This document shows positions 15,668 through 64,000 of a DNA stretch of 64,000 nt, in pieces. This stretch comes from Syntrophobacteraceae bacterium (GTDB taxonomy: Bacteria > Desulfobacterota > Syntrophobacteria > Syntrophobacterales > Syntrophobacteraceae): positions 52,564 to 116,563 of the forward strand of contig JALOOX010000002.1 in the NCBI GenBank assembly GCA_025454175.1, read 5' to 3'. How positions within the stretch are numbered: the stretch's first letter is position 1; each line of letters begins with the position of its first letter. The notes below the pieces were generated by a model that was not told where the DNA came from, searched no databases, and saw nothing but the letters and a program-made list of their open reading frames with translations. Made by a program: the position numbers and the translations under genes.

Positions 15668-16791
15668 GGTTGAAGACGCTCACCGCATTGGTTGCAGAAA
15701 ACGGATTCCGGCAGGTTTTCGGTACCGCACTGCGAGCATTGCCTCGGCTGCGGTTTCAGCTCGACAGCCTGTCCGCATCGTGAACAAAACCGGGCGTGAG
15801 GCGGCAGGTTTTTGCCGCACTGGCTGCAGCGGCCGAGCACGAGGAGCTGGTGTCCACAGTGGAGGCAGAATCGAGACTCGCCGGGAACAGGCTGTCCGCA
15901 CTCCGGGCAGGCGGAAGCCGCCCCTGACGGCATGGCCGATGCGCCCTGGGTCATCCACTGGCTCACCATGGAGGGCATGAGGAGACCCATGCCCATGCCC
16001 AACCCTGCTCCAGCCTCTCCCTGGGCTGAAGACGCATTTTCGACGGCCATGGCCATCTTCATCTGCATGAGCCGATTGAGGTCGTCGAAGACGGCCAGCC
16101 GGCTCTTGTCGTCGATGGCCTGCTGCACCTCCGGGGGCGGCGTGATGGAGTTGATGTAGAGCTGCGAGAGCTCCAGGCCGAAGTGGCTGAAGTCCTCCTT
16201 CAACCGCCCGGCCATCCCGGTGGAAAGGTCATCGTACCGCCCGGGAAGGTCGAAGAGTGAATCCAGCTTTTCGCCAAGATAGTCGTTGAAGCGGGAAACG
16301 ATGACCCGGTTGAGATATTCCTCGATCTCTTCCGTCGTGTAGAATCCCTGGGTCCCCACCAGGCTGTTGATGAGCAGAATGGGCTGAGCCACCCGCACGT
16401 TGAAGACCCCGAAGGCGCGCAGACGGATGAGGCCGAGTCGGGAATCCTTGAAGGCCACGGGGTCCCGGGTACCCCATTTGAGGTTCGTGAACACCTTGAG
16501 GTTGACGAAGTACACCTCGGCCCGGAGCGGACTCGTCATGGCCCAGGGGAGGCTCAGGACCTTGGTGAGCAGGGGAATGTTGGCGGTCTTCAGGGTGTGG
16601 CGGCCGCTCCCGAAGGCTCCGTAAGCCTTTCCGTTGTAAAAGAATACGGCGGCCTGGCTTTCGCGGACCACGAGCTGCGCGCCGTATTTGATCTCACCGG
16701 AGCCCTCCTCGGGGATTCGGTGCACGATGGCTTTTCCCGTAGGGTCCAGCCACTCGATGACTTCCAGGAAAACAACGTTGTTGGTGCCCAT
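15664..16791 (-). CDS. SPFH/band-7 domain protein with C-terminal multiple zinc ribbons (COG4260 / B. subtilis YdjI-like)
   Basis: N-terminus VFLEVIEWLDPTGKAIVHRIPEEGSGEIKYGAQLVVRESQAAVFFYNGK is typical of the virion-core-like SPFH family. The C-terminus holds three CxxC...CxxC double zinc ribbons. Confidence 0.8.
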   Translation of the reverse strand: MGTNNVVFLEVIEWLDPTGKAIVHRIPEEGSGEIKYGAQLVVRESQAAVFFYNGKAYGAFGSGRHTLKTANIPLLTKVLSLPWAMTSPLRAEVYFVNLKVFTNLKWGTRDPVAFKDSRLGLIRLRAFGVFNVRVAQPILLINSLVGTQGFYTTEEIEEYLNRVIVSRFNDYLGEKLDSLFDLPGRYDDLSTGMAGRLKEDFSHFGLELSQLYINSITPPPEVQQAIDDKSRLAVFDDLNRLMQMKMAMAVENASSAQGEAGAGLGMGMGLLMPSMVSQWMTQGASAMPSGAASACPECGQPVPGESRFCLHCGHQLLVLGRCSQCGKNLPPHARFCSRCGQAVELKPQPRQCSQCGTENLPESVFCNQCGERLQP

Positions 16792-16823: not shown

Positions 16824-16844
16824 GGTTTCCGGTTCCTGGTTCCT
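16824..16844 (-). repeat. heptanucleotide tandem array, 3 units (sense AGGAACC AGGAACC GGAAACC)
   Basis: The plus strand reads ggtttcc ggttcct ggttcct. The array lies 32 nt upstream of the SPFH start codon, in sense orientation. Confidence 0.85.
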
Positions 16845-17085
16845 GGCTGAAGCCCCTGTTGATCGTCGAGGGTCTGTCGAAGGGGCATTGGGGACCTTAA
16901 ACAAAAATCGTTCCAATACTCGGGCCGGCAGAGCAGAAGTCATGGAATTTCACCGCCGGCCGGTATACCCGGCGGCCAATGCGGGTGGCTGAATTGAACC
17001 CCTCGAGCTTCACCGTGTATAAACGCCTGGAACGGCGGGTTTGGCCCGCTCCCCGCCCGACAGGATTCAAGCCCAGGAGGCGATT

Positions 17086-30745: not shown

Positions 30746-30765
30746 GCATCGGACCGGGTATGCCG

Positions 30766-33371: not shown

Positions 33372-33406
33372 GGTTTTCAACTCGAAGCCCGAAGCTCGAA
33401 ACCCGA
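33372..33406. repeat. period-7 tandem array, second family (plus strand ggttttc aactcga agcccga agctcga aacccga)
   Basis: Directly visible 7-nt periodicity in the convergent spacer between tupC and the HD-GYP gene. Confidence 0.7.
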
Positions 33407-33408
33407 AG

Positions 33409-34650
33409 CTATTCAGAGCTGGTGTTCGCTACTGGATCAGGTGACGGCAGGGAAGGGTTGATCCCGTCATTTCCCGGCCCATGGCAAGGTTCGCCGGCCT
33501 TCGGAGCGACAATCCGCAGGAAATTCTCGACAAGTATGGGATTGAAGGTCGTTCCCTTCTCCTTGTTCAGGATGTTGATGATTTGGTCCATCGGTTTGGG
33601 CTCACTGTAGGAGCGCCGGCTTCGCAGGGCGTCGAACACGTCCGCGATGGAGATGAGCTGCGCCACCATGTTGGGCTTCCAGCCGGGCTTCACGGCCGGG
33701 TAACCCGTGCCGTCGAAACGAAGGTGGTGCTCCATGGCGGCCAGCACCGCGATTTTGGGAATGCCTTCCACTTCCATCAGATAACGCCCCCCTTTGACGG
33801 GATGGGTCTCGATGATGGCCCGCTCGTCGCTGGTGAGCCTGCCGGGCTTGCTCAGGATCTCCTCGGGTATGAACGTTTTTCCCACGTCGTGGAGCAGCGA
33901 GGCCATGCCGATGTCGTAGAGCTGCTTTTCGCCGAAGCCGAGCCTCTGGGCCTGGATGAGCGTCAGGATGCACACGTTGACGACGTGGGTGAAGGTGTAC
34001 TCGTCATTGTGCTTCACCGTTGCGAGCAGGCTGAGGGGGTTCATGTTCCTGCGGATCTCCAAGATCAGCTTCCGCACCGAGTCGTCGACACCCCGAATGC
34101 TTAGCTGCTTGCGCTCCTCGGCCAGAAGATAAAGCTCCCTCATCCTTGTGATGTCTCTTTCATCCATGCTGCTCAGGACGCTCATGACCTCCCTGGCTTC
34201 CGTGGACACGTCCTGGCTGTCGGAGGACGGTGCGTCGGACTTGACCCGGATCTCGACATGGCCGAGCTTGATGGAGGGCCACGAGCGAACGGCCGGGACC
34301 TCCTTGGACGCCAGATCCTGGATGAGCTCCTCGAATTCCGCCGGGGACAATCCCTTCAGGAAGGTGATGCGCTCCACGCCCTTTTCCCGTATGACCCGCA
34401 CGAATCTTTCGACGGTATGGCCCGCTGCCACAAGGGAGTGGTTGTCGAGGATGAGCTCGTCTCCAACCGTGAAGACCGTGACGCTGCCTTTGAGATCGAG
34501 GATCTCCGAGAGATCCCGGTGTGCCCTGCCCACATGCTGAGTGACCAGCGCGTGTGACTGGGAATACAGCCGAAGGTTGGTGATGGCGGCGGTGAACTGG
34601 GAGATGACTCTGAGCATCTTGTTGTGAATCACGGACTCTTTCATGACCAT
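33409..34650 (-). CDS. HD-GYP domain phosphohydrolase (c-di-GMP phosphodiesterase family)
   Basis: HDVGKTFIP ... HHLRFDGTGYP in the C-terminal half. The N-terminal roughly 130 aa resemble the N-terminus of the upstream 791-aa protein. Confidence 0.85.
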   Translation of the reverse strand: MVMKESVIHNKMLRVISQFTAAITNLRLYSQSHALVTQHVGRAHRDLSEILDLKGSVTVFTVGDELILDNHSLVAAGHTVERFVRVIREKGVERITFLKGLSPAEFEELIQDLASKEVPAVRSWPSIKLGHVEIRVKSDAPSSDSQDVSTEAREVMSVLSSMDERDITRMRELYLLAEERKQLSIRGVDDSVRKLILEIRRNMNPLSLLATVKHNDEYTFTHVVNVCILTLIQAQRLGFGEKQLYDIGMASLLHDVGKTFIPEEILSKPGRLTSDERAIIETHPVKGGRYLMEVEGIPKIAVLAAMEHHLRFDGTGYPAVKPGWKPNMVAQLISIADVFDALRSRRSYSEPKPMDQIINILNKEKGTTFNPILVENFLRIVAPKAGEPCHGPGNDGINPSLPSPDPVANTSSE

Positions 34651-48897: not shown

Positions 48898-48920
48898 CGT
48901 CGACCTCCAGCTCGGAGCCC

Positions 48921-48955
48921 ATCAACCATCAACCAGGAACCAGAAACCAGAAACC
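48921..48955 (+). repeat. heptanucleotide tandem array, 5 units (ATCAACC x2, AGGAACC, AGAAACC x2)
   Basis: Exact 7-nt phasing from 48921. The array ends 18 nt upstream of the GH15 start codon, in sense orientation. Confidence 0.9.
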
Positions 48956-48973: not shown

Positions 48974-51016
48974 ATGCCGCGCGACGTCCCCCTTGGAAAC
49001 GGCAGGCTCCTGCTTTGCTTCGACAGTGATTCTTCCGTCCGTGACCTCTATTTTCCCCATGTGGGCCAGGAAAACCATCTGAGCGGCAATGCCTGCCGCA
49101 TGGGAGTCTTTGTGGACTCGGTTTTTTCCTGGATCGGGGATGGATGGAGGAGGGAGCTCCTCTACGAGGAGGACACGCTGGTGTCCCGGGCGGACCTGTA
49201 TCACTGGGGGATGGGCCTTCTCATCACCTGTCTTGGGGTGGTGGATTTTCACGAGAACGCCCACGTGCGGGAGATCCTGGTGGAGAATCTCCGGCCCGAG
49301 CGCCGCCAGGTGAGGCTGTTTTTTTCTCAGGATTTCAACATATCGGGCAACAGCATCGGGGATACCGCCGCATTCGACCCCGGCACCCACGGAATCGTTC
49401 ACTACAAGGGAAATCGCTACTTCCTGGTGAACGGCATGACCGACCAGTCGGAGACGCTTTCCCAGTATGCCGTGGGGGTCAAGGGCGTGGGGGGCAGGGA
49501 GGGGACATTTCGGGATGCCGAGGACGGCCAACTGTCGGGGAACCCCATCGCCCAGGGGTCCGTCGATTCGGTGATCGGTCTGCACCTGGAGCTGGAAGCC
49601 CATGCGTCCGGCTCGGCTTTCTACTGGATTTGCGCGGGTGAGAACTGGGAGGCCGTTCGCCACCTGGATGGCCTGGTCCGTCACAAGCATCCGAGGGCGC
49701 TCATCAAGCGGACCGCCGACTTCTGGACGCTCTGGGTGCGCAAGGAGCCGCTGCCCGATGGCCACCTCTCCGGGAGAATCCAGGAGCAGTACCGGCGGAG
49801 CCTTCTCATCCTGAGCACACAGCTCGACTGGCGGGGAGGCATCCTGGCGGGAAACGACTCGGACGTCATCCAGTACAACCGGGACACCTATTCGTACGTG
49901 TGGCCCCGGGACGGGGCTTTGGTGGCCAATGCCCTGGACCTGGCCGGCTATCCGGCCGACGCCCGGAGGTTTTTCGATTTCGCGGCGTCGGTCCTGGACG
50001 AGGAAGGCTACTTCCTGCACAAGTACAACCCCGACGGGAGCCTGGCCTCCTCCTGGCACCCGTGGGTCGAGGGAGGGGAGCGCCAGCTTCCGATCCAGGA
50101 GGACGAGACGGCTCTGGTGCTATGGGCATTGTGGCAGCATTTCGTGCTCTACCGCGACATCGACTTCATCAAGCCCCTGTATCGCTCCCTCATCAAGCGG
50201 GCGGCGGACTTCATGGTGTCCTACCGGGATGTCGAGACCGGCCTCCCCGGTCCGTCCTACGACCTCTGGGAGGAGCGGCGGGGCATCCCGAGCTTCACCG
50301 TGGCGGCGGTTTTCGGGGGACTGACGGCGGCGTCCCTCTTCTGTGAGATCTTCGGCGAGGATGACCAGGCCCGCGTCTACAGGAAGGCGGCCTCACAGGT
50401 CCGGGACGGCGCATCCAGCCACTTGTGGCGGGAGGATCTGGGTCGCTTCTGCCGCATGATCTCCCGGCGGCGGGATGGGACCCTGGAGGTGGACGGGACC
50501 TGTGATGCGAGCCTCTGGGGGCTCTTCAGCTTCGGGGTGTACAGGCCGGACGACCCCCGCATCACGGCCACCATGACGGCCCTGCGCGAGAAGCTTTGGG
50601 TGGGCGGAGCCACGGGGGGAATGGCACGCTACGAAAACGACGATTATCATCGGGCCGGCCGCGAGGCCACGGGGAATCCGTGGTTCATCTCGACCCTCTG
50701 GCTGGCGGACCATCTCGTCGCCACCGCCCGGACCCTCGAGGACCTGCGGGGGGCCGAGGAGCTCCTCGAGTGGGCCTGCCGTCACACGCTGCCTTCGGGA
50801 GTCATGGCCGAGCAGATCCACCCACACAGCGGGCAGCCGCTTTCGGTTTCGCCCCTCACCTGGAGCCACGCCACCTTCGTGACCACCACCCAGCGGTTCA
50901 TCCTGAGAGTCGCCGAGATCGAGTCCGAGGTCACCCCGCCCCGGCGCGACGACTGGATCGGCCGCCTTTTTGCCGAAACCTGCAACGCCATCCACGGTTC
51001 CTGCAAGGTCAGGTGA
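48974..51016 (+). CDS. glycoside hydrolase family 15 (glucoamylase/glucodextranase-like)
   Basis: 680-aa ORF. N-terminus PLGNGRLLLCFDSDSSVRDLYFPHVG and a C-terminal (alpha/alpha)6-type region (WPRDGALVANAL, YDLWEER, NPWFISTLW). Confidence 0.85.
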   Translation: MPRDVPLGNGRLLLCFDSDSSVRDLYFPHVGQENHLSGNACRMGVFVDSVFSWIGDGWRRELLYEEDTLVSRADLYHWGMGLLITCLGVVDFHENAHVREILVENLRPERRQVRLFFSQDFNISGNSIGDTAAFDPGTHGIVHYKGNRYFLVNGMTDQSETLSQYAVGVKGVGGREGTFRDAEDGQLSGNPIAQGSVDSVIGLHLELEAHASGSAFYWICAGENWEAVRHLDGLVRHKHPRALIKRTADFWTLWVRKEPLPDGHLSGRIQEQYRRSLLILSTQLDWRGGILAGNDSDVIQYNRDTYSYVWPRDGALVANALDLAGYPADARRFFDFAASVLDEEGYFLHKYNPDGSLASSWHPWVEGGERQLPIQEDETALVLWALWQHFVLYRDIDFIKPLYRSLIKRAADFMVSYRDVETGLPGPSYDLWEERRGIPSFTVAAVFGGLTAASLFCEIFGEDDQARVYRKAASQVRDGASSHLWREDLGRFCRMISRRRDGTLEVDGTCDASLWGLFSFGVYRPDDPRITATMTALREKLWVGGATGGMARYENDDYHRAGREATGNPWFISTLWLADHLVATARTLEDLRGAEELLEWACRHTLPSGVMAEQIHPHSGQPLSVSPLTWSHATFVTTTQRFILRVAEIESEVTPPRRDDWIGRLFAETCNAIHGSCKVR

Positions 51017-52664: not shown

Positions 52665-52865
52665 ATGGCGGAAGGTCGAGTGAAATGGTTCAATGACAGC
52701 AAGGGCTATGGATTCATCGAAAGTGACAGCGGACATGACGTTTTCGTCCACTACAGCGCCATTGAGGGCAGCGGCTTCAAGTCACTGGCCGAAGGCGACC
52801 GCGTGATGTTTGATGAGGAAAACGGAGCCAAGGGGCCCCAGGCCGCCAAGGTGAGAAAGCTCTAA
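52665..52865 (+). CDS. cold-shock protein (CspA family)
   Basis: [15 protein letters not shown] (RNP1) and VFVHYSAI (RNP2). 66 aa. Confidence 0.93.
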
Positions 52866-53490: not shown

Positions 53491-54750
53491 TCACCCGCAT
53501 CCGGTGCCGCCGCCGCTGCATCCGGAGCCGCACTTGGTGCGCCGCTTCCTGAAGACGGCCACGTTCATGTCCCCGTGGACGGCTTCGAGACCCTCCTGGA
53601 TGAATCCGCTCATTTCCACCGGGACGATGCCGGCCCGGGCCAGCACGGCCCGCGGGTTGTCCCCGATGCCGCTGACCAGCACGGCCCGGCAGTCCTTGAG
53701 CCGTTCAGCCAGGTCCATCCATCGCCGCACGCCCCCGCCCGGCTCCGGGGCTTCCCTTTCCTCGACCATCCGGAACCCGTCGCCGTTCTTCTCCCAGATC
53801 TGCAGGCGGTGCGCTTCGCCCAGGTGCTGGTTGACCAGCATGCCCTCGAGGGTGGCCACGGCCACGTACGGGCGCTCCGACGGGAAGCATCGCTCCATCG
53901 AGCAATTCACCATGGTATCGCGGAATTCGGCGGTGCGGTCGTCCTCGAGGAGACCCACGGCGTCGGCCCGGCAGCGGGTGCAGTGGTGCATCTGGGGCAG
54001 GAGCTCTCCGGCGGCGCTCCGGATAGCCGTCATCTGGTCATGGGTCGGCTCCGGGACGTTTTCGAAAGGTGTGTCCGCGTTGGGATAGACCGGCATGCAG
54101 TTGAGAATGTCCACCCCGAGGTCCGCCATGGCCCGGGCCACTTCCACCACGTGGTCGTCGTTGATCCCCGGGATCACGATGGTATTCACCTTGACCATGA
54201 TTCCCCGGGCCTTGAGGGCTCTCACGGCCTCCATCTGGCGATCGAGGAGGACCTCGGCGGCCCGGGCTCCCCGATAGATGACCTTTCCGTCCCGCACCCA
54301 GCTGGTGATTTTCCGGCCGACAGCGGGGTCCACGGCATTGATCGTCACCGTGACATGGGTGACGCCAAGATCGGCCAGCTCGTCCACGTGGGCCGGGAGT
54401 CCCAGGCCGTTGCTCGCCAGGCAGAAGAGCATGCTCGGAAATCGAGACCGCACCAGCCGCAGGGTCTCGATGGTCTGCTCGGCATTGGCCATGGGGTCCC
54501 CCGGTCCGGCGATGCCCACCACCGTAATGGAGGGCTCTTTCTCCATGACCCGTCCGAGGTAGCTCAAGGCCTGCTCCGGGGTCAGAACGGCGCTGGTGAC
54601 TCCCGGGCGGCTCTCGTTCACGCAGTCGGTCTTTCGGTTGCAGTAGTTGCACTTGATGTTGCACGCCGGCGCCACGGGGAGGTGGACGCGTCCGCATTCC
54701 CCCTTGACCTCGACATTGAAGCATGGATGGCGATCGATTTCGAGCCTCAT
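53491..54750 (-). CDS. nifB: nitrogenase cofactor biosynthesis radical-SAM protein NifB (with C-terminal NifX-like domain)
   Basis: CNIKCNYCNRK radical-SAM box and HVTVTINAVDP. C-terminal NifX/NafY-like region (VAVATLEGMLVNQHLGEA...VLVSGIGDNP). Cys/Gly tail CGSGCSGGGTGCG. GGAGG SD. Confidence 0.93.
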   Translation of the reverse strand: MRLEIDRHPCFNVEVKGECGRVHLPVAPACNIKCNYCNRKTDCVNESRPGVTSAVLTPEQALSYLGRVMEKEPSITVVGIAGPGDPMANAEQTIETLRLVRSRFPSMLFCLASNGLGLPAHVDELADLGVTHVTVTINAVDPAVGRKITSWVRDGKVIYRGARAAEVLLDRQMEAVRALKARGIMVKVNTIVIPGINDDHVVEVARAMADLGVDILNCMPVYPNADTPFENVPEPTHDQMTAIRSAAGELLPQMHHCTRCRADAVGLLEDDRTAEFRDTMVNCSMERCFPSERPYVAVATLEGMLVNQHLGEAHRLQIWEKNGDGFRMVEEREAPEPGGGVRRWMDLAERLKDCRAVLVSGIGDNPRAVLARAGIVPVEMSGFIQEGLEAVHGDMNVAVFRKRRTKCGSGCSGGGTGCG

Positions 54751-54777
54751 GGTGTCACCTCCGCGGGGATCGATGCG

Positions 54778-56226
54778 CTACAGGTAGGTGTAGCCGACGG
54801 GAGAGTCTTCCTGTTTGCGTTCCAGCAGTTCATTGATGAGCCGGTCCAGCAGCGCAAGGGCCCCCCGGTAGCCCAGGTGCAGCGTCCGCTGTCCGCCGAA
54901 CCGGTCGTGGATGGGAAATCCCACCCGGATCAGCGGGATGTTCCAGCGGCGCGCCAGGTGATAGCCCTTGCTGTGCCCCACCAGGATGTCGGGGGAGAGC
55001 CCCCGGGCTTCTTCGGCGATCTCGTGGAAGTCCACTCCCTCGCGCACTTCCGGCGGTTCGAACAGGATGTCCCGGGTCACGGCCTCGATGGCCTCCCGAA
55101 AGCCGTTGCCGGTTCCGCCCGACGCGCAGAGCACGGGCTTCACGCCGATCTCGCAGAGGAAGGCCGTGAGGCCCACCACGAGGTCCTCCTCGCCGTAGAC
55201 CACGGCGCGCTTGCCGAACACGACTTTGTGCCCGTCCACCAAGGCGTCCAGAAGCCGGCCACGCTCGAGGGCGTGCTTTTCCGGCATGCAGATCCCGGCC
55301 ACATCCTGCAGGACCTCGAAAAACCGGTCGCTCTCGCGGAGACCGATGGGCATTCCGAGTCCATGGAGGGGTACCCCGAACCTGGCTTCCAGAAGCCCAC
55401 CGGCCGTGTCGAGCCCCCGAACCATCACGGTAGGGCCGGGTTGCGTCCCGGCCCTACGCCTTGCCGACAGGGTTCGCCCGAGCTCGATGGTTGCCCTGGA
55501 GCCACCCATGCTGACCAGGTCTCGAACTGGGGTCCCGCCGCGGGGGATCTTTTCGTAGTCCTCGAGGGCCGGTCCATCCAGGGTGTCGGAATAGTCGGGA
55601 AGCAGGATGGTCCGCAGGCCGAAGTCCGCCGTGATCTCCTTCAGGTATCGGAGGTCCGCGGGCGAGACGAAGCCGGGCAGCAGGTTGACACCATCGTGCT
55701 GCTCCGTTCCCCCCGCCAGCTGGTCCACCATGGCCCGGACGGCGGCGTGGAAGCCTTCCATGTGAGTCCCGGAGTAGCTCGGCGTCGAGACGTTCACCAG
55801 GAGGGGCAGCTCGGGGCTCCCCTCCCGGGAGGCCCATTCCTGCCGGAACGCCTTGAGGATCATGGGGACATCATCCCCGATGGTTTCGGTGAGACAGGTG
55901 GTGGCGATGCCCACGAGACCCGCACCATACTTATTCATGACGTTCACCAGCCCCTGCCTGAGGTTGGCCTCGCCGCCGTAGACGGCGTGCTTCTCTCCGA
56001 GGGAGGACGAGGCGATGTCCATGGGCTCCCGGAAGTGGCTGATGATGTAGCGCCGCATGTAGGTGGCGCAGCCCTGGGACCCGTGCAGGAAGGGGATGGC
56101 CCCCTCGATGCCTCGAAAGGCCAGGCAGGCTCCCATGGGCTTGCAGAGCTTGCATGCGTTGGTGGTCGAGACATAGGGAGAGACGGGCTGCTTCGTCGTG
56201 ATCGTCGTGGTCGGATTCGTTTCCAT
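54778..56226 (-). CDS. nifN: nitrogenase MoFe cofactor biosynthesis protein NifN
   Basis: NACKLCKPMGACLAFRGIEGAIPFLHGSQGCATYMRR is NifN/NifK-like. It follows nifE. Confidence 0.9.
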   Translation of the reverse strand: METNPTTTITTKQPVSPYVSTTNACKLCKPMGACLAFRGIEGAIPFLHGSQGCATYMRRYIISHFREPMDIASSSLGEKHAVYGGEANLRQGLVNVMNKYGAGLVGIATTCLTETIGDDVPMILKAFRQEWASREGSPELPLLVNVSTPSYSGTHMEGFHAAVRAMVDQLAGGTEQHDGVNLLPGFVSPADLRYLKEITADFGLRTILLPDYSDTLDGPALEDYEKIPRGGTPVRDLVSMGGSRATIELGRTLSARRRAGTQPGPTVMVRGLDTAGGLLEARFGVPLHGLGMPIGLRESDRFFEVLQDVAGICMPEKHALERGRLLDALVDGHKVVFGKRAVVYGEEDLVVGLTAFLCEIGVKPVLCASGGTGNGFREAIEAVTRDILFEPPEVREGVDFHEIAEEARGLSPDILVGHSKGYHLARRWNIPLIRVGFPIHDRFGGQRTLHLGYRGALALLDRLINELLERKQEDSPVGYTYL

Positions 56227-56238
56227 GGCGTGGATTCC

Positions 56239-56266
56239 GGTTTCTAGTTTCTGGTTTCTGGTTTCT
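56239..56266 (-). repeat. heptanucleotide tandem array, 4 units (sense AGAAACC AGAAACC AGAAACT AGAAACC)
   Basis: The array occupies most of the 54-nt nifE-nifN spacer and ends 12 nt upstream of the nifN ATG. Confidence 0.9.
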
Positions 56267-56280
56267 GATTGCAGCTCGCT

Positions 56281-57696
56281 TCAGGCCGACAGTCCGGCCA
56301 GCCGGGTGCACCCGCCCATGGCTTTCGACGACAGCTCGCCGCCGGAGTGGGATGACTTTCTCGGCACGAAGCGCCACACGGGGCTCATGACCGAAGTGTA
56401 GATCTCGTGGGCGAAGTGAAGCATGCCCACGAATCCCTCGAGGGGCTCCTTGCGCTCGTGGTTGTGGTCGCAGAAGCCCACTCCCAGCTTGTAGGCGATG
56501 GGCCGCTCCTTGACGCCGCCCACGAAGACGTCCACGTCCTTTTCCTTGAGGAAGGATGAAAGCTCGAGGGGGTTGGAGTCGTCCACGATGATGGTGCCCT
56601 CGTCGGTGATGTCGTGGAGCTCCTGGTAGTCCTCCTCGGTGCCGGTCTGGGAGCCCACGAGAACCACCCGCATGCCGATCAGCCGAAACGCCTTGATGAG
56701 CGAGAAGGCTTTGAAGGCTCCCCCCACGTAAATGGCCGCCTTTTTGCCCTGGAGGGCCTTTCGGTACTCCTGTAGCTTCGGGTAGAGCGTGGAAAGCTCT
56801 TCTCGGACGAGGTCCCGGGCCCGCTCCATGATGCGCGGGTCCCTGTCCTCGAAGAATCGGGCCACGCTGTAGAGGGCCTCGGCCATGTCCTCCACCCCGA
56901 AGTAGGAAACGCGGATGAAAGGGGTGCCGAAGGATTCCTGCATCATCCTGGCGAGGTCGATGGTGGCCCCGGAGCACTGGACCACGTTGAGGGCCGCGCC
57001 GTGGGCCCGCTGGAGGTCGGCCACCCGACCGTCCCCCGTGATGTTGGCCACCACCTCGATGCCCATCTTCTGGAAATAGTCTCGAATGATCCAGATCTCG
57101 CCCGCCAGGTTGAAGTCCCCGAGAATGTTGATGCTGAGAGGGGAGATGGAGTCGGTCGCGCCGGTCCCCATGAGCTGGAACATGGCCCGGCAGGCCGCGT
57201 TGTATCCCGCCCGCTTGTTGCCCTTGAAGCCCTCGGACTCGACGGGAATCACCGGGATGGACTTCTCCTCGCTCACCTTGCGGCAGACCGACTTGAGGTC
57301 GTCTCCGATGAGTCCCACGATGCAGGTCGAGTAGACGAAGGCTGCCCTGGGCTGGTGCCGGTCGATGAGCTCCGTCAGGGCTCGATGGAGCTTCTCCTCG
57401 CCGCCGAAGATGACGTCCTTCTCCTGGAGGTCCGTGGAGAAGCTCAGCCGGTGCAGCTCCGGCCCCGAGGACAGTGCCCCACGGATATCCCACGTGTAGG
57501 CGGCGCAACCGATGGGGCCGTGAACGAGGTGCACGGCGTCGGCGATGGGGTACAATACCACCCGGGAGCCGCAGAAAACGCAGGCCCGCTGGCTCACTGC
57601 CCCCGCCAGGCTGTCCCGGTCGCACGACATCTGGTAAGGCTTTTCGCCCTTGCGGTGAATCTGGTCGGCCCGCTCTTCGAATATGAGGTTTTCCAT
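56281..57696 (-). CDS. nifE: nitrogenase MoFe cofactor biosynthesis protein NifE
   Basis: CVFCGSRVVLYPIADAVHLVHGPIGCAAYTWDIRG is a NifE/NifD-like core. I use ATG 57696 (MENLIFEER), preceded by GGGAG. Confidence 0.9.
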   Translation of the reverse strand: MENLIFEERADQIHRKGEKPYQMSCDRDSLAGAVSQRACVFCGSRVVLYPIADAVHLVHGPIGCAAYTWDIRGALSSGPELHRLSFSTDLQEKDVIFGGEEKLHRALTELIDRHQPRAAFVYSTCIVGLIGDDLKSVCRKVSEEKSIPVIPVESEGFKGNKRAGYNAACRAMFQLMGTGATDSISPLSINILGDFNLAGEIWIIRDYFQKMGIEVVANITGDGRVADLQRAHGAALNVVQCSGATIDLARMMQESFGTPFIRVSYFGVEDMAEALYSVARFFEDRDPRIMERARDLVREELSTLYPKLQEYRKALQGKKAAIYVGGAFKAFSLIKAFRLIGMRVVLVGSQTGTEEDYQELHDITDEGTIIVDDSNPLELSSFLKEKDVDVFVGGVKERPIAYKLGVGFCDHNHERKEPLEGFVGMLHFAHEIYTSVMSPVWRFVPRKSSHSGGELSSKAMGGCTRLAGLSA

Positions 57697-57717
57697 GGGG
57701 AGCTCCCTGGTAAGGAC

Positions 57718-57787
57718 GGTTTCAAGTTTCAAGTTCCTGGTCTCTAGTTTCTGGTTCCTGGTTTCTGGTTCCTGGTTTCTGGTTGCG
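57718..57787 (-). repeat. heptanucleotide tandem array, 10 units
   Basis: The plus strand reads ggtttca agtttca agttcct ggtctct agtttct ggttcct ggtttct ggttcct ggtttct ggttgcg. The array ends 21 nt upstream of the nifE ATG. Confidence 0.92.
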
Positions 57788-57861
57788 GATCCATGGTCGG
57801 TGGGCTCAAGCCTCCATGTCCCGGGAATACTCCTCGGAGCCCCCGGCGCATGAGGGGGTAG

Positions 57862-57881
57862 GGCCGGGCTGCGTCCCGGCC
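57862..57881 (-). other. GC hairpin just downstream of the ferredoxin stop codon
   Basis: GGCCGGG-ctgcgt-CCCGGCC (7-bp stem) with no U-tract. It could be an RNA stability or processing element rather than a terminator. Confidence 0.4.
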
Positions 57882-57888
57882 TGTGAGG

Positions 57889-58194
57889 TCAAGCCAGAAG
57901 GTATTGCTTGGCGGGGCCGCCTCCGTTTTCCAGGGAATCCAGGATGGCGTCCATGGCCTCCTCGCCGGCGATGCCCTTGTACCAGTGGCCCTGGGGGTAG
58001 ACGATGACGATGGGGCCCTCTTCGCAGAGCTTGAGGCAGCCGGTCGTCGACACCATGGCGTCGATGCCCCGGTCGGCGAGCTCCTCCTCGAGGTAGGACA
58101 CGAGCTGCATGGAGTCCTTCTTGATGCATTTCCCCCTGGCTTCGGTTCCCCTGAAGCTGGCGCAGACGAACAGGTGATAGTCGGGCTTGTGCAT
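57889..58194 (-). CDS. thioredoxin-like [2Fe-2S] ferredoxin
   Basis: 101 aa. Cys pattern HLFVCASFR...GKC...TGCLKLCEEGP is typical of (2Fe-2S) ferredoxin domain proteins found in nif clusters. Confidence 0.85.
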   Translation of the reverse strand: MHKPDYHLFVCASFRGTEARGKCIKKDSMQLVSYLEEELADRGIDAMVSTTGCLKLCEEGPIVIVYPQGHWYKGIAGEEAMDAILDSLENGGGPAKQYLLA

Positions 58195-58216
58195 GGGATG
58201 TTCCTTTGATATGGGC

Positions 58217-58237
58217 GGTTTCTGGTTTTCAGTTGTC
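58217..58237 (-). repeat. heptanucleotide array, 3 degenerate units
   Basis: The plus strand reads ggtttct ggttttc agttgtc. The array lies in the 49-nt nifK-fdx spacer, 22 nt upstream of the fdx ATG. Confidence 0.7.
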
Positions 58238-58243
58238 CTTCGG

Positions 58244-59620
58244 CTACATGACCAGCTCGAAGCTCTCCTCCGGGGCGTCGCGATCGATGCGGTCCAGGAT
58301 GGCGTCCAGGATTTTCTCCAGGAGCCGCAGGCCGCCCCGGTAGCCCACCGTCGGCATGTAGCTGTGGCCGACCCGGTCGAGGATGGGGAAGCCGAGCCTC
58401 ACGAACGGGATGTCCTCGTCCCTGGCGATGTACTTCAGATACGTGTTCCCCATCAGGAGGTCCACCGGGTCATTTCGCAGCCACTGGTGAAACAGGAACA
58501 TGTCCCCTGCGCCGCGCACGTTGACGGGGTGCGGCACCGACCGGGTGATCTCCCGGATCCGCTTTTCGAACTTCTTGCCCGGCGTTCCCGTGACGATGTG
58601 AATGGGCCACATGTCGATGGAAACCAGGAATTCCGCGAGGACGATGAGCTGATCCGGGTCCCCCACCAGGCCGACCTTTTTGCCGTAAAAGTACTGGTGC
58701 ATGTCGGCCATCACGTCCAGGAGCTGGCCCCGCTCGATGTTGAGAGAATCGGGCACGGGCACCCCCCCCATCTTGCGCAGGTGGTCGATGAAGGTGTCGG
58801 TTGCATGGAGTCCGATGGGGAGATCCAGGATCTCGCACGGGACCTTGCACCGGGCGTCCAGGGCGCGGGCCGCCGCCCCCGAGGCTGTTTCACCCAGGGC
58901 GATGGTGCCGATGGCCGCTCCCGTTCGCAGGAGCTCCTGGATCGTGACCCCGCCTTTCGGGAACATCTCGAACCTTCCCGTCTGTGGCGCATTCAGCACG
59001 TTGGAGGTGTCCGGGAAGACCGTGGCGGGAATGCCCAGCTCACCGGCGATCCTCTTGATTTCAGCCATGTCCGACGGTTCCACGTAGCCGGGAATGATGT
59101 TGATCCGATGCTCCCGGTGCGTGTCCGGCGTGGCGAAATAGTCAGCCATGGCCCTGGTCATGTTGGAGAACCCCGTCACATGGGAGCCGACAAAGCTGGG
59201 CGTGTTCGCATGGATCACATACTTCCCGGCGGGGATTCTCCCCTCGTCGGCCGCCTTTGAGGCGATCTGGGGAATGTCGTCCCCGATGGTCTCCGAAAGG
59301 CACGTGGTGTGGACGGCGATGACGTCCGGGTTGTAGATGGTGAAAATGTTGTGGATGGCCTGGATCAGGTTCGCCTGACCGCCGAAGACCGAGGAGCCCT
59401 CGGTGAAGGAGCTCGTTCCGGCCATGACCGGCTCCCTGTAATGGCGCGTCAGGGTGCTGCGGTGATAGGCGCAGCATCCCTGGGAGCCGTGGCTGTGGGG
59501 CAGGCATCGGTGGATGCCGAGGGCCGCGTACATGGCTCCTATGGGCTGGCAGGTCTTGGCCGGGTTGATGGCCAGGGCCTGGCGTTCGACAACTTCATCC
59601 GGTGTGTGTCTCAGCAGCAT
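58244..59620 (-). CDS. nifK: nitrogenase molybdenum-iron protein beta chain
   Basis: CQPIGAMYAALGIHRCLPHSHGSQGCCAYHR and the remaining NifK core. The track start (TTG 59662) lies inside the heptad array. I prefer ATG 59620 (MLLRHTPDEV), with GAGGA 7 nt upstream. Confidence 0.92.
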   Translation of the reverse strand: MLLRHTPDEVVERQALAINPAKTCQPIGAMYAALGIHRCLPHSHGSQGCCAYHRSTLTRHYREPVMAGTSSFTEGSSVFGGQANLIQAIHNIFTIYNPDVIAVHTTCLSETIGDDIPQIASKAADEGRIPAGKYVIHANTPSFVGSHVTGFSNMTRAMADYFATPDTHREHRINIIPGYVEPSDMAEIKRIAGELGIPATVFPDTSNVLNAPQTGRFEMFPKGGVTIQELLRTGAAIGTIALGETASGAAARALDARCKVPCEILDLPIGLHATDTFIDHLRKMGGVPVPDSLNIERGQLLDVMADMHQYFYGKKVGLVGDPDQLIVLAEFLVSIDMWPIHIVTGTPGKKFEKRIREITRSVPHPVNVRGAGDMFLFHQWLRNDPVDLLMGNTYLKYIARDEDIPFVRLGFPILDRVGHSYMPTVGYRGGLRLLEKILDAILDRIDRDAPEESFELVM

Positions 59621-59647
59621 GGTTTTATCCTCGGTCCCTGTGGGAAC

Positions 59648-59696
59648 GGTTTCAGGTTTCAAGTTTCAGGTTTCAAGTTTCTGGTTTCTGGTTATG
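59648..59696 (-). repeat. heptanucleotide tandem array, 7 units (sense TGAAACC/TGAAACT/AGAAACC)
   Basis: The plus strand reads ggtttca ggtttca agtttca ggtttca agtttct ggtttct ggttatg. The array ends 27 nt upstream of the nifK ATG. Confidence 0.92.
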
Positions 59697-59703
59697 GATT
59701 ATT

Positions 59704-59724
59704 GACTTCCGACTTCCGACTTTC
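59704..59724 (-). repeat. second heptamer array, 3 units (sense GAAAGTC GGAAGTC GGAAGTC)
   Basis: The plus strand reads gacttcc gacttcc gactttc. The last unit overlaps the nifD stop codon (59723-59725). Confidence 0.85.
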
Positions 59725-61378
59725 AGTCGACGCCGTAGGTGGCCGTGATCTCGGGGTTTTCCTGCCAGGGGGCCTTGAGGTAGCTCCAGACCCTGCTGTT
59801 CACCATGCGGTCGATCTCTTTGTAGAAATTGACTGCGCCGCCGAACCCCGCGTACGGTCCCCCCGAGTCGTAGCTGTGGAGCTGTTTCATGGGTGTGCCG
59901 CTCTTCTGCACGGCGAATTTCTCCTTGATGCCCGCGCAGACGAGGTCCGGCTTGTAGATCTCGATGAGCTTCTCGGTTTCGAACTGGCTGATGTCGTCGA
60001 TGACCAGTCTGCCCTCGTCCATGTCCGGCATCATGCCCTCGTAGTCATGGAGGGTGAAGCCGCATGCTTCGAGCCGTTCGAGCTCCTCGGCCGACTTTCG
60101 GGGCCGGTAGCGATGCTCGTCGGGATGGACCTCGAGCTCCTCGATGTTGCGGCTGTCGGCGTCCACCTTGATGGTGGGCAGCACCCGGCGCCCCTCGTAA
60201 TCGTCGCGGTGGGCGAACTCGTACCCGGCCGAGAGCACCTTCATGCCCATCTCCTTGAACAGCTCCTGGTAGTGGTGGGCCCGGGAGCCTCCCACGAAGA
60301 GCATCACCGTTTTGCCCTCAGTCCGGGGCCTGATCTCCGCCAGGGCCTCCTCCACGGCGAACATCTCTTTGGCGATGACTTCCTCCACCCGCTCCATGAG
60401 CTTCGGGTCCCCGAAATACTGGGCGATCTTGCGGAGGGACTTGGCCGAGGCCTTGGCCCCGATGAAGTTCACCTTGATCCAGGGGATGCCGAATTTCGTC
60501 TCCATCATCTCGGCCACGTAGTTGATGGAGCGGTGGCACATGATGCAGTTGAGATCCGCCGTGTGGGCGTTGGCGAAGGCGTCGATGCTCGAATTGCCGC
60601 TGAAGGTCGAAACCAGCGTGATGCCGCATTCCTCGAGGAGGCCCTCGATGACGAAGGCGTCTCCCCCGATGTTGTACTCGCCGAGCAGGTTGATCTTGAA
60701 TTCACCGCCCCGGTCCGTGTCGTCCAGGCCCACCACGTGGGTGAAGATGCCGTTGTTGGCGATGTGATGACCGGCCGACTGGCTCACGCCCTTGTAGCCC
60801 TCGCAGCTGAAGGCGAAGATGTTCACGCCCAGCTTCTCCTTCATCTCGCGGGTCACCGCGTGGACGTCGTCTCCGATGAGCCCCACGGGACACGTCGAGA
60901 ACACGGCGATGGCCTTGGGGTGAAAGAGATCGTAGGCCTCCTGGATGGCGACCCGGAGCTTCTTCTCGCCGCCGAAGACGATCTGCTCCTCCTGCATGTC
61001 CGTCGAAAAGCAGTAGGTCATGTAGTTCTCGTCCGCATGGCTCGGCGGCCTGGTCTGGTTGCGGCGGGTCAGCCAGCTGTAGAACCCGCAGCCGATGGGT
61101 CCGTGGGTGATGTTCACGATGTCCCGGGTCGGCCCCAGGACGACACCCTTGCAGCCGGCGTAGGTGCAGCCGCGCTGGGTGATGATGCCCGGGATGGTCT
61201 TGACGTTGGCCTGAATTTCCGGCACGCAGCCGCCTTCATCCGTGGTGTTGATGATGATGGACTTGGCGCGCTTGCGGGCGACTTTCGTCGGGTACTTCTC
61301 GATGAGCTCGCCCTTCACCTCTTCCGGTGGGATTTCCTCCGGCAGCCGGCATTCCGCTGAATAAGGGATTTTGGTCAT
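59723..61378 (-). CDS. nifD: nitrogenase molybdenum-iron protein alpha chain (long, anaerobe-type with about 50-aa insertion)
   Basis: GCTYAGCKGVVLGPTRDIVNITHGPIGCGFYSW. 551 aa. The insertion LPTIKVDADSRNIEELEVHPDEHRYRPRKSAEELERLEACGF resembles the clostridial-type NifD insertion. AGGAGA SD. Confidence 0.94.
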   Translation of the reverse strand: MTKIPYSAECRLPEEIPPEEVKGELIEKYPTKVARKRAKSIIINTTDEGGCVPEIQANVKTIPGIITQRGCTYAGCKGVVLGPTRDIVNITHGPIGCGFYSWLTRRNQTRPPSHADENYMTYCFSTDMQEEQIVFGGEKKLRVAIQEAYDLFHPKAIAVFSTCPVGLIGDDVHAVTREMKEKLGVNIFAFSCEGYKGVSQSAGHHIANNGIFTHVVGLDDTDRGGEFKINLLGEYNIGGDAFVIEGLLEECGITLVSTFSGNSSIDAFANAHTADLNCIMCHRSINYVAEMMETKFGIPWIKVNFIGAKASAKSLRKIAQYFGDPKLMERVEEVIAKEMFAVEEALAEIRPRTEGKTVMLFVGGSRAHHYQELFKEMGMKVLSAGYEFAHRDDYEGRRVLPTIKVDADSRNIEELEVHPDEHRYRPRKSAEELERLEACGFTLHDYEGMMPDMDEGRLVIDDISQFETEKLIEIYKPDLVCAGIKEKFAVQKSGTPMKQLHSYDSGGPYAGFGGAVNFYKEIDRMVNSRVWSYLKAPWQENPEITATYGVD

Positions 61379-61512
61379 CTTGGGGCTTCTCCTGTCGAGG
61401 GCGCAGGACCCTCTGTCGTCATCCCCGTGAAAACGAGGAGTCTGGTGATGCGAGTGGTTCCAGGTTCCCGATCTTCCGGGAATGCTGATTTCAAGGCCTC
61501 GACGGCGGCTAC

Positions 61513-61893
61513 CTACAGGTCGTCCAGAACGGAGTCGCCGGCCTCGCCCGTCCGGACCCTGACGGCGTCCTGGACCGGCATGATGAAGATCTTTCCGTCG
61601 CCCGATTTGCCCGTCTGGTTGACCTGGATGATGGTCTTCACCGTTTTCAAGACCAGCTTGTCGGGGACGACGACGCTGAAAATTCGCTTGGGGATGAGCC
61701 GCTGGCTTTGACCGAGGTGGGCGATGGCCTCTTCGTAGCCTTTCTCGGCGCCTTCGAGCACCGTGAGGTCCACCAGACCCTTCCCGCGCCCCAGGGCGTC
61801 CCGGGCCGTCATGGAGGAAATGCCGGCATCGGCCAGGGCGCGCTTGGTCCTGTTCATCATGTTCATGCGTACGATGGCCATGACTTCTTTCAT
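61513..61893 (-). CDS. nifI2: PII-like nitrogenase regulator NifI2
   Basis: 126-aa GlnB-family ORF (GDGKIFIMPV) with an extended T-loop. It is the second PII gene after nifH and overlaps nifI1 by 4 nt. Confidence 0.88.
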   Translation of the reverse strand: MKEVMAIVRMNMMNRTKRALADAGISSMTARDALGRGKGLVDLTVLEGAEKGYEEAIAHLGQSQRLIPKRIFSVVVPDKLVLKTVKTIIQVNQTGKSGDGKIFIMPVQDAVRVRTGEAGDSVLDDL

Positions 61894-62246
61894 AGCTTCA
61901 CCTGTCCCGTTTCTCCGCCGGCCGTCTCCCTGATGCCGGAGCTTATGGTGTAGACTTCCTCGACAGGGGTGATGAAGATCTTGCCGTCGCCGAAGGCGCC
62001 CTTGTCGCCCGTGCGCGCCGCCTTCATGATGGTCTTGATGACGAAGTCCCTGTCACCGTCCTTCACGACGGTGAGCAGAAGCTCCTTGGGGATTTCGTCG
62101 TAGGTGACCTCGCCGATTTTGATGCCCCGCTGTTTTCCGCGTCCCACGACCGACATCTTGGTCACGGCCGGAAATCCGGCATCCATCAGCGCAGCCATGA
62201 CGCTGTCCACTTTTTCGGGTCTCACGATGGATCGAATCATGATCAT
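61890..62246 (-). CDS. nifI1: PII-like nitrogenase regulator NifI1
   Basis: 118-aa GlnB-family ORF (IVRPEKVDSVMAAL, GDGKIFITPV) directly downstream of nifH. AAGGAGAG SD. Confidence 0.88.
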   Translation of the reverse strand: MIMIRSIVRPEKVDSVMAALMDAGFPAVTKMSVVGRGKQRGIKIGEVTYDEIPKELLLTVVKDGDRDFVIKTIMKAARTGDKGAFGDGKIFITPVEEVYTISSGIRETAGGETGQVKL

Positions 62247-62324
62247 GGTTTCTTACTCTCCTTGAGGGACAATACCCTCGGCAGGGGTGCGGGTGGATCG
62301 GTGCAGCCGGGATGGGCTCGTCGG

Positions 62325-63337
<1,013 letters not shown>

Positions 63338-63424
63338 TTTTGTGGAATTTAGGTTTCTGGCGACGGAAGCCGCCAAGCGTCGACCAACACACCCGGGCGG
63401 GAACGACTGCCCGATAGGCTGGTT

Positions 63425-63458
63425 TGCCGGCTCCCAAGCTCGAGCTTGGGAGCCGGCA
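63425..63458. repeat. perfect 34-bp palindrome
   Basis: TGCCGGCTCCCAAGCTC|GAGCTTGGGAGCCGGCA. The two 17-nt halves are exact reverse complements. Confidence 0.95.
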
Positions 63459-63499
63459 GGCGGTTATACTGATTAAGGATTGGATCTTTCTTTGCTCTA

Positions 63500-63576
63500 T
63501 TCACCGCGAAGGCGCGAAGAACGCAAAGCAAGATAGAGATGGACCCTTTGCGACCTTTGCGCCTTGGCGGTGAGAA
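63500..63576. repeat. imperfect roughly 30-bp inverted repeat (REP/MITE-like hairpin element)
   Basis: Arm 1 is TTCACCGCGAAGGCGCGAAGAACGCAAAG (63500-63528). The reverse complement of arm 2 (63546-63576) is TTCTCACCGCCAAGGCGCAAAGGTCGCAAAG. The loop is about 17 nt. Confidence 0.7.
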
Positions 63577-63636
63577 AATGAAGGTTCTCAACCGGAACGA
63601 GTATAAGGACTGGCGCCCGGTGGGAGCAGGGGTTGG

Positions 63637-64000
63637 TCATGGCTGGAGCCAAAGGTTGGAAAGGTCGAATTCGAGCCTGGAAAACGGCTCGGCGCACACC
63701 TTGTCGTCTTCGAAGTAGACCCCGAGGACAATCCACCGGCCTGAATCATCCAGCTGAAAGACTTCCAGGGATTTGGCGGTTGGATCGATGAGCCACAGGT
63801 GCGGGACACCGCGCAGGGCGTAGATGCGCATCTTGTGGACACGGTCCTTCCGCATCGTGCCCGGCGACAGCAGCTCACAGACCCAGTCCGGCGATACCGA
63901 TATCCAGTTGTGGGGCTCCTCGACGGGAAACCGCTCTCTTTTCCACCCCGCGAGGTCCGGCACCAGCAGATCGTCCCCGAACATGATCTCCGGCTCAACC
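63637..64000 (-). CDS. Uma2 family (DUF820) endonuclease, 5' end outside window
   Basis: PDWVCELLSPGTMRKDRVHKMRIYALRGVPHLWLIDPTAKSLEVFQL matches the PD-(D/E)xK-like Uma2 core. The frame stays open to the window edge. Confidence 0.75.
   Translation of the reverse strand, partial: VEPEIMFGDDLLVPDLAGWKRERFPVEEPHNWISVSPDWVCELLSPGTMRKDRVHKMRIYALRGVPHLWLIDPTAKSLEVFQLDDSGRWIVLGVYFEDDKVCAEPFSRLEFDLSNLWLQP

Follow-up and report, generated by a model that had tools for sequence, protein, structure and literature searches.

The DNA analysed here (the window) is a 64-kb stretch, 64 000 nucleotides of contig JALOOX010000002.1 from a Syntrophobacteraceae bacterium. It has a G+C content of 62% and carries a nitrogen-fixation (nif) cluster on its minus strand, in which Pfam and NCBIfam identify the two P-II proteins as NifI1 and NifI2. 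Several spacers of this cluster are occupied by arrays of a head-to-tail heptanucleotide, YWGRAAC (variants CAGAAAC, CTGAAAC, TTGAAAC and CAGGAAC), which are the subject of this report. The window contains six such arrays, of which four occupy nif spacers and the other two stand 5' of unlinked genes. All six are intergenic or intercistronic, lie in the sense orientation and end 12-32 nt 5' of a start codon (Table 1).

Read on the minus strand (56100-59900), the nif-spacer arrays agree almost base for base with an earlier description made from the letters alone (the sequence-only reading), which had reported strand-oriented heptamer arrays ending 12-27 nt before the next start codon; the distances are 27, 22, 21 and 12 nt for the nifD-nifK, nifK-fdx, fdx-nifE and nifE-nifN spacers, respectively. 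The nifD-nifK array consists of the units CCATAAC, CAGAAAC, CAGAAAC, TTGAAAC, CTGAAAC, TTGAAAC and CTGAAAC, and a GAGGA Shine-Dalgarno (SD) motif lies between it and the nifK ATG (59620); on its other side, 8 nt separate it from a GGAAGTC-type array. The fdx-nifE array is built from CAGAAAC, CAGGAAC, TAGAGAC and TTGAAAC and is followed by a GGGAG SD motif before the nifE ATG (57696). The same-sense unit noticed earlier before two unlinked genes is also real: one array is found 32 nt ahead of an SPFH/Band-7 zinc-ribbon gene (16791..15664, minus; ATG at 16791) and the other stops 18 nt short of the start codon, an ATG, of a GH15 glycosyl-hydrolase gene (48974..51016, plus). There are no arrays upstream of nifH or in the nifH-nifI1 and nifN-nifB spacers, and in the nifI2-nifD spacer there are just two degenerate units (GGGAACC TGGAACC, 61457-61468).

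A scan of the whole window for GRAAC at a period of 7 (chains of at least three units) returned six loci only (five minus, one plus), each in the sense direction of the next gene. The pattern GRAACNNGRAACNNGRAAC matches 12 times, compared with 0.00 matches expected from 100 dinucleotide shuffles. Independent detection with Tandem Repeats Finder (TRF) places period-7 arrays at 56231-56267, 57718-57784, 59648-59693, 59704-59722, 16818-16846 and 48931-48955. Placement was evaluated on a 52-gene map of the window by dropping six arrays at random in stranded intergenic DNA, 11% of which lies in sense no more than 60 nt 5' of a start; all six land in this fraction with a probability of 1.7 × 10−6. 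By eye, the array flanks show no conserved non-repeat sequence, only decayed units at the 5' edges, and an origin as a mobile element resembling miniature inverted-repeat transposable elements was rejected on this ground.

Table 1. Repeat arrays, nif cluster and predicted RNA domain in the window.
Feature	Position	Strand	Basis
nifH-nifI1-nifI2-nifD-nifK-fdx(2Fe-2S)-nifE-nifN-nifB cluster	53491..63148	-	Pfam, NCBIfam
YWGRAAC array, ~7 units, nifD-nifK spacer	59648..59696	-	Minus-strand reading, TRF, pattern count
Second, G-richer heptamer, GAAAGTC GGAAGTC GGAAGTC, overlapping nifD TGA	59704..59724	-	TRF, 2.7 copies, 100% match
Degenerate remnant of 2-3 units, nifK-fdx spacer	58217..58237	-	Minus-strand reading; no TRF call
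YWGRAAC array, 10 units, 3' half of fdx-nifE spacer	57718..57787	-	Minus-strand reading, TRF, pattern count
YWGRAAC array, 4 units, nifE-nifN spacer, 12 nt before nifN ATG (56226)	56239..56266	-	Minus-strand reading, TRF
YWGRAAC array, 3 units (CCAGGAA CCAGGAA CCGGAAA)	16824..16846	-	TRF, period-7 scan
Array of CCATCAA (two units) then CCAGRAA (three units)	48920..48955	+	TRF, period-7 scan
Other heptamer, CTTCGGG/TTTCGAG, four units, directly 3' of HD-domain gene stop	33383..33409	-	TRF
Predicted stable hairpin domain, 5' half of fdx-nifE spacer, including GGCCGGG-ACGCAG-CCCGGCC	57803..57895	-	Minimum free energy and centroid structures agree

The TTG codons inside TTGAAAC units at 59662 and 57732 are spurious starts for nifK and nifE, respectively, the first of which had been recognized in the sequence-only reading. 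Mechanical open reading frame (ORF) calls are lengthened by them by 14 codons for nifK and by 12 for nifE. Such codons constitute a systematic hazard for start-codon annotation, and the same is seen (distance -7) among the listed matches from other phyla that are described below.

On the mRNA strand the arrays contain 48% A, 29% C, 16% G and 7% U, with no AUG or GUG, which bears out their earlier description as non-coding, G-poor and A+C-rich. The G content rises to 38% in the GGAAGTC array at the nifD stop, against 16% in the arrays before starts. This array and the CTTCGGG/TTTCGAG array are both stop-proximal, with less A and more G+T than the start-proximal arrays.

Partition-function folding of each sense array in its native context (with 120 nt of upstream sequence and the first 60 nt of the next gene) gives mean predicted unpaired probabilities of 0.53-0.81, including 0.71 for nifD-nifK, 0.70 for fdx-nifE and 0.81 for nifE-nifN. 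The corresponding values are 0.36-0.41 for random window segments in the array position and 0.25-0.52 for arrays inverted in place, so that the models support the earlier expectation of probably unstructured RNA and confine it to the sense orientation. The nifD-nifK spacer is predicted to fold more weakly than its shuffles (z = +1.0). The fdx-nifE spacer appears bipartite, its 5' half forming the predicted hairpin domain, with no U-run after it, and its 3' half consisting of the array, which is open in the centroid structure. No Rfam 15 model matches any of the arrays at the gathering threshold or at E ≤ 5.

No intrinsic terminators were called on the nif strand within the cluster. This strand has a single σ70-like match, whose position (59726-59698) coincides with the GGAAGTC repeat beside the nifD stop; the two σ70-like matches in the region correspond to the chance level. 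The σ54 consensus (TGGCAC-N5-TTGC, at least 9 of 12 positions) was found neither upstream of nifH (63149-63640, minus) nor in the cluster. The cluster is therefore probably transcribed through its spacers and, since no convincing terminator or promoter matches lie beside the arrays, these would form part of the intercistronic RNA.

An identical NifK protein is encoded in three independent assemblies, namely GCA_025490995.1 and two JGI metagenome contigs, which align with the window over 7-10.5 kb at 99.86-99.9% identity and with no insertions or deletions. In this comparison of four sequences including the window, each of the three differs from the window by 7-15 substitutions, none of them in any array. 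Because the arrays are identical in three independent assemblies, they are not assembly artefacts, and judging from these sequences they are not hypervariable at the strain level.

A metagenome scan with NifE identified 80 syntenic nif loci, in which NifE is 73-94% identical to that of the window. The closest relatives by this measure, loci L124 and L125 (94%) and L126 (91%), carry YWGRAAC at the same spacers with other copy numbers and other dominant variants. The nifK-fdx spacer has two units in the window, five in L124/L125 and seven in L126; fdx-nifE has ten, three and eight (all YAGGAAC in L126); nifE-nifN has four, four and none. For nifD-nifK there are seven units in the window and five or more in L126, this spacer not being covered in L124/L125. 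Conserved position, changed length and homogenization of the units within each array are the signature of replication slippage. Orientation is biased, arrays are present in relatives and unit counts at orthologous spacers differ between the window and its relatives, contrary to the outcomes that the sequence-only reading had named as refuting it. The four spacers of one essential operon, together with orthologous spacers that hold from zero to ten units or wholly different units, constitute a natural series.

Other tandem units occupy the nif spacers of more distant loci: GGTCTTC and TTGAACY (L139/L166), RAGAACT (L149), CAGTGAT and its relatives (L136, L144, L145 and L151), CTGAAAG (L144 and L166), TTGAACT (L144 and L146), CTGGAAA (L156) and GTTCCCT (L164). 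AACTAAA is a further G-poor heptamer found at array positions in relatives, and L151 also carries AACAGTG. Among the 54 arrays in the evaluable spacers of the 80 loci the period is 7 in 40, 8 in 12, 6 in one and 9 in one, and there are none with periods of 5, 10 or 11. Octamer arrays, GGGATTGA in the fdx-nifE spacer of L145 and GCTGAAAC in the nifN-nifB spacer of L160, occupy the same kind of position.

With duplicate spacers removed, the mean G content in the relatives is 0.17 for start-proximal arrays and 0.32 for stop-proximal arrays (p = 0.001). The unit of L164, GTTCCCT, is the complement of AGGGAAC and is placed before start codons. Since L164 uses GTTCCCT, the rule is that the G-poor strand is transcribed near the start, and not that the GRAAC motif is present. 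This rule holds across independent units: it is the G-poor strand, and not a particular motif, that faces the ribosome-binding site (RBS).

Inverted pairs that fold into hairpins include the nifK-fdx spacer of L126 and spacers in L135, L144 and L156. In the L126 spacer (1435-1652) an antisense array, GTTCCTGGTTTCTGGTTCCGGGTTTCTGG, stands directly after the nifK stop and faces the sense array before fdx, the long predicted hairpin being built from the unit that is single-stranded in the models of the window.

The four-unit pattern GRAACYWGRAACYWGRAACYWGRAAC, scanned over one genome per species, gave at least 120 matching stretches, compared with an estimated chance expectation of ~0.3 for the whole collection. 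The following statements on these stretches apply to the matches listed. These include Flavobacterium and other Bacteroidota, Pyrinomonadaceae and other Acidobacteriota, Planctomycetota, Verrucomicrobiota, Desulfobacterales (including Desulfonema magnum), Syntrophorhabdus, Bifidobacterium and others. Distances from the 122 listed arrays to the ATG or GTG of a long ORF were taken from crude ORF calls. A start lies within 20 nt downstream in 28 of the 122 in the sense direction and in eight in the antisense direction; the corresponding numbers are 41 and 12 within 40 nt, and 44 and 16 within 60 nt (binomial p = 4 × 10−4). An SD-like motif is present in only five of the 41 start-adjacent arrays and absent from the other 36. 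About half of the 41 stop no more than 10 nt short of the start codon (e.g. ...CTGAAACT ATG and ...CAGAAACT ATG); the arrays that lie this close to the start form the upstream half of the initiation region of those genes.

Where both strands carry arrays, most loci have the minus-strand array on the left and the plus-strand array on the right, as expected for divergent genes; the exceptions are closely spaced inverted pairs capable of hairpin formation. Not every member of the YWGRAAC family is a leader element: some instances are long arrays or inverted pairs (L034, L046 and L110). In L034 (Desulfonema magnum, CP061800), L046, L110 and L035, inverted YTGAAAC/TAGRAAC arrays stand back to back and make up perfect long hairpins, and this architecture is possibly terminator-like or stabilizer-like. 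Arrays of 10 to more than 20 units of this heptamer type were observed in L013 (7534-7693; Flavobacterium azizsancarii), L030 (Desulfobacterales HSG2), L040, L095 and L115. Some very long arrays lie at contig ends or beside runs of N, suggesting assembly breakage.

The YWGRAAC arrays very probably represent a lineage-specific heptanucleotide simple-sequence repeat (SSR) family of the type known from short tandemly repeated repetitive (STRR) sequences. Three or more head-to-tail 7-nt copies occur beyond chance (by TRF and the pattern count given above), one unit is present at six dispersed non-coding loci within 64 kb, and both copy number and unit change between the window, L124/L125 and L126. 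They do not belong to STRR1-3 in the strict sense: those units are CCCCAGT, TTGGTCA and CAACAGT and their hosts are heterocystous cyanobacteria, while the unit here is YWGRAAC. A G+C content of 62% combined with a nifI1/nifI2 cluster is likewise not known to be cyanobacterial. STRR sequences are said to occur in nif operons of Anabaena.

The strand polarity of the arrays, G-poor before starts and G-richer after stops in both the window and its relatives, is that described by Rehm et al. (PMC4692102) for the GGGAATC repeats of Xanthomonas and the GGGGAYT repeats of Nostoc. These lie mostly between co-oriented ORFs; their G-rich strand is non-coding within 50 bp upstream of an ORF and is the coding strand just after stops, inverted pairs are frequent and an operon-internal example is pecE-pecF (PMC4692102). 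The present arrays share with them the tandem 7-nt units, the many dispersed intergenic copies of one unit per genome, the co-oriented spacers, the hairpin-capable inverted pairs and the polarity of the mRNA, which carries the G-poor strand in the ~50 nt ahead of an ORF and the G-rich strand after a stop (PMC4692102). In contrast to the Xanthomonas and Nostoc units, YWGRAAC is A-rich and has no G-tract, hence no G-quadruplex potential, and in contrast to the cyanobacterial and xanthomonad hosts the organism is an uncultured diazotroph of ~62% G+C with a cluster of the nifI1/nifI2 type.

A second comparison is with the TAACTGA repeats described by MacGregor (2015; PMC4679880) from marine Beggiatoaceae, some Cyanobacteria and some Bacteroidetes. 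Most of these stand a few nucleotides upstream of starts where a canonical RBS is rare, some are internal to ribosomal-protein operons, and translational regulation through S1, Csp or CsrA was proposed, CspB binding one protein per heptamer (PMC4679880). The likenesses are the two to six or more sense copies directly before starts, the operon-internal sites, the scatter across phyla and a proposed role in translation via S1, Csp or CsrA (PMC4679880); a canonical RBS is rare beside the cross-phylum YWGRAAC arrays listed, as it is beside TAACTGA in BOGUAY. The units differ, however (TGATAAC versus TGAAACY in the closest rotation), and TAACTGA provides stop codons in all frames, whereas CAGAAAC units provide none. 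Unlike the neighbours of TAACTGA, each array in the window has a normal SD between it and its start codon.

Heptanucleotides are, according to Mrazek (2007) as quoted in PMC4679880, the most abundant class of long SSR in prokaryotes, perhaps through polymerase slippage. Heptamer repeats near start codons have been linked to recF and recO expression in a Nostoc preprint, without a mechanism, and heptamer families are annotated in Geobacter metallireducens. In the literature collection searched, YWGRAAC-type heptamers are nowhere named as repeat units; one match was a PCR primer, and the remaining titles listed had nothing to do with bacterial repeats. The novelty implied in the sequence-only reading is not supported in view of these precedents, as start-adjacent and operon-internal heptamers had already been described (PMC4679880; PMC4692102). 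What is new here is the unit, the host lineage and the location inside a nif operon of the anaerobe type; the kind of repeat is already known. The unit YTGAAAC/CAGAAAC recurs in many phyla, often at the SD position of SD-less genes, and its hosts include the cultivable Flavobacterium and Desulfonema. Together with the general rule on the G-poor strand, this recurrence makes the function of heptamer repeats, a long-standing question since the STRR of 1990, approachable in cultivable bacteria.

Unstructured A/C-rich leaders are a feature of ribosome standby (the model of de Smit and van Duin), of CA-repeat enhancers and of S1-dependent initiation without an SD. The arrays resemble standby and enhancer leaders in forming a predicted single-stranded, A/C-rich and G-poor tract directly 5' of the RBS, but those leaders are not tandem-repeat families and have no unit dispersed throughout a genome. 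The interpretation tentatively favoured here, at somewhat less than even probability, is a role in cis that is not sequence-specific, in which transcribed G-poor arrays provide a structure-free leader or standby site, or a landing platform for S1. Replication slippage would generate the arrays, which would then be kept as structure-free leaders. With the nif cluster transcribed through the array-bearing spacers, the array RNA could act irrespective of its sequence as a leader free of structure and of AUG and GUG, separating the initiation region from GC-rich coding RNA or stable hairpins upstream. The single-stranded array might thereby give 30S subunits a place to land or stand by, with ribosomal protein S1 as the probable mediator, and each internal cistron that follows a long spacer (nifK, nifE and nifN) would have its own, independent initiation. 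Selection would remove arrays that lie near starts in the opposite orientation, because their G/U-rich RNA pairs with its surroundings. Engagement of the ribosome or S1 and a fitness benefit of the arrays are presumed in this scheme. It draws on the placement and sense direction of the six arrays, their composition and predicted openness, their persistence at nif spacers of relatives in spite of turnover, the polarity common to independent units and to the published heptamers, and the excess of sense arrays before starts among the cross-phylum matches listed.

Several observations weigh against this interpretation. Composition alone leaves unexplained why one unit occupies six loci and why similar units recur across phyla, and only about a third of the cross-phylum arrays listed are start-adjacent. 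In the relatives, many spacer arrays are inverted pairs that fold into long hairpins, and start-proximal arrays are not significantly less paired than stop-proximal arrays (0.41 versus 0.32, p = 0.23), a lack of difference that arises because many of the arrays are inverted pairs. According to the folding models, it is solitary sense arrays, like those of the window, that are unstructured, and not all such repeats. Finally, replacement of the array by random filler causes no significant loss of predicted RBS accessibility in five of the six cases. The exception is the nifE-nifN spacer, the only one in which the array raises predicted accessibility (p about 0.02); in favour of the interpretation, inversion of the array lowers it in three of the six cases. 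On these predictions an improvement of RBS accessibility is not supported, and the version of the model in which arrays open the SD and start codon was dropped. Any benefit would then come from the single-stranded platform and not from RBS opening: in the models the arrays supply a single-stranded tract beside the RBS, not an opened RBS.

The recurrence of the unit could instead reflect a sequence-specific platform at which a single-strand RNA-binding protein, reading in a 7-nt register, coordinates the array-bearing genes post-transcriptionally. Cold-shock-domain proteins, the multi-OB-fold ribosomal protein S1 and small RRM proteins are candidates, and cold-shock domains contact about 7 nt each. 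This alternative is judged unlikely but is one of the two main rivals, since composition alone does not easily explain recurrence and a platform would better account for one dominant unit per genome, for one unit family at six loci in 64 kb and for similar units beside starts across phyla. The proposal of S1, Csp or CsrA for TAACTGA (PMC4679880) points in the same direction, as do the GGA core of CsrA sites contained in CAGGAAC and a gene for a cold-shock-domain protein 630 nt beyond nifB. Against a specific reader, the unit is loose within arrays (CAGAAAC, TTGAAAC, CTGAAAC, TAGAGAC and CAGGAAC), and relatives place other G-poor heptamers at the same positions (TTGAACY, CTGAAAG, AACTAAA and GTTCCCT). 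Csp prefers U-rich RNA and the arrays contain only 7% U; Csp genes are moreover ubiquitous, so that adjacency to nifB is uninformative. The Csp gene in question (CspE/CspA-like, E = 3 × 10−28) lies at 52665-52865 on the plus strand, opposite to nifB, and its adjacency is probably a coincidence. On inspection of specific motifs, CsrA was rejected because GGA occurs in only some units, and Hfq because a period of 7 cannot hold the triplet register of ARN.

A comparably small chance is given to the arrays being near-neutral by-products of slippage, with purifying selection removing those transcribed as G-rich RNA near an RBS and thereby leaving the orientation bias. The abundance of heptamers among long SSRs (Mrazek, 2007, as quoted in PMC4679880) would fit, as would the rapid turnover, with complete loss from the nifE-nifN spacer of L126 and different units in the same spacers, the position of most listed cross-phylum arrays away from starts and the lack of a predicted gain in RBS accessibility over random filler. 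A pure filter would, however, permit G-poor arrays anywhere in a spacer, whereas all six arrays in the window are start-proximal, even in a 192-nt spacer, and stop-proximal sites carry other units. In many phyla, among the matches listed, the arrays replace the SD region itself, which also argues against near-neutrality.

A bolder form of sequence specificity, considered improbable, is that (YWGRAAC)n is a cross-phylum, SD-independent initiation element, recognized in steps of 7 nt by a conserved single-strand-binding component associated with the ribosome (such as S1, a cold-shock-domain protein or an RRM protein). If so, its recurrence in Bacteroidota, Acidobacteriota, Planctomycetota, Desulfobacterota and others, often directly before an ATG that lacks an SD, would reflect shared recognition rather than convergent slippage.

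The probability is lower again that the arrays are rut-like Rho-loading sites, or RNase processing or stability spacers, that set polarity or decay between nifHDK-fdx and nifEN. The uridines that RNase E prefers are absent from CAGAAAC units. The excess of C (29%) over G (16%; C/G ~1.8) and the predicted lack of structure would suit such a role, and the 70-nt fdx-nifE array follows a stable predicted hairpin domain that could protect the upstream segment. Most arrays, at 21-35 nt, are nevertheless too short, only the fdx-nifE array approaching the 60-80 nt of a rut site, and arrays also precede apparently monocistronic genes and abut starts in other phyla (among the matches listed).

It is very unlikely that slipped-strand changes in array length act as a rheostat or phase-variation switch that tunes the stoichiometry of the nif cistrons. 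The precedent is the (ATCTTTC)n repeat in the 5' untranslated region of hmw1A/hmw2A of Haemophilus influenzae, which forms a hairpin with a G-rich arm, is cut by RNase III and varies within populations (PMC12721329). Both are heptamer SSRs in leaders, and copy number differs between relatives at every nif spacer; length-dependent control, transcription and an RNA-level mechanism have been demonstrated for hmw (PMC12721329), alone among the heptamer repeats compared here, while transcription of the window arrays is an inference. Unlike for hmw, neither a G-rich partner arm nor a long hairpin is predicted for the window arrays, and nitrogenase assembly genes are not typical contingency loci. Nor did unit number change among the window and the three sequences at 99.86-99.9% identity, a small sample that differs in this from the hypervariability of hmw and does not support rapid tuning by the slipped-strand variation proposed in the sequence-only reading. 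Least credible of all is a DNA-level transcription-factor site or promoter element like the TTTTGAT heptads of ctxAB or SARP heptamer repeats: heptamer direct repeats are known as such sites and gene-relative orientation is expected of promoter elements, but the 12-32 nt to the start, with an SD between, leave no room for a core promoter and leader, no σ70-like or σ54-like matches adjoin the YWGRAAC arrays, and known sites show a constant number of helically phased copies instead of 3-10 contiguous copies of variable number.

Some further features of the region and its relatives were noted. The 101-residue protein encoded between nifK and nifE (57889-58194, minus) has no Pfam match; it matches the NCBIfam model NF041612 for Clostridium-type 2Fe-2S ferredoxins with E = 3 × 10−21, below the curated cut-off, and the protein is conserved at the nifK/nifE position in almost all of the 80 related loci. 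Between a Uma2 gene and nifH (63500-63575, minus) lie inverted, hairpin-capable arrays of period 9, GCGCAAAGGTCGCAAAGG ... CTTTGCGTTCTTCGCGCCTTCGCG, and GCAAAG/CTTGGCG inverted arrays similar to this pair fill the nifD-nifK spacers of L129, L143 and L156. A σ54 activator with GAF domains is encoded near nif in L001 (551-2467). A Moco (molybdenum/tungsten cofactor) riboswitch aptamer is present at 30640-30758 on the plus strand of the window (57.4 bits, the gathering score being 36), where it precedes a gene on the same strand (31015-31866).

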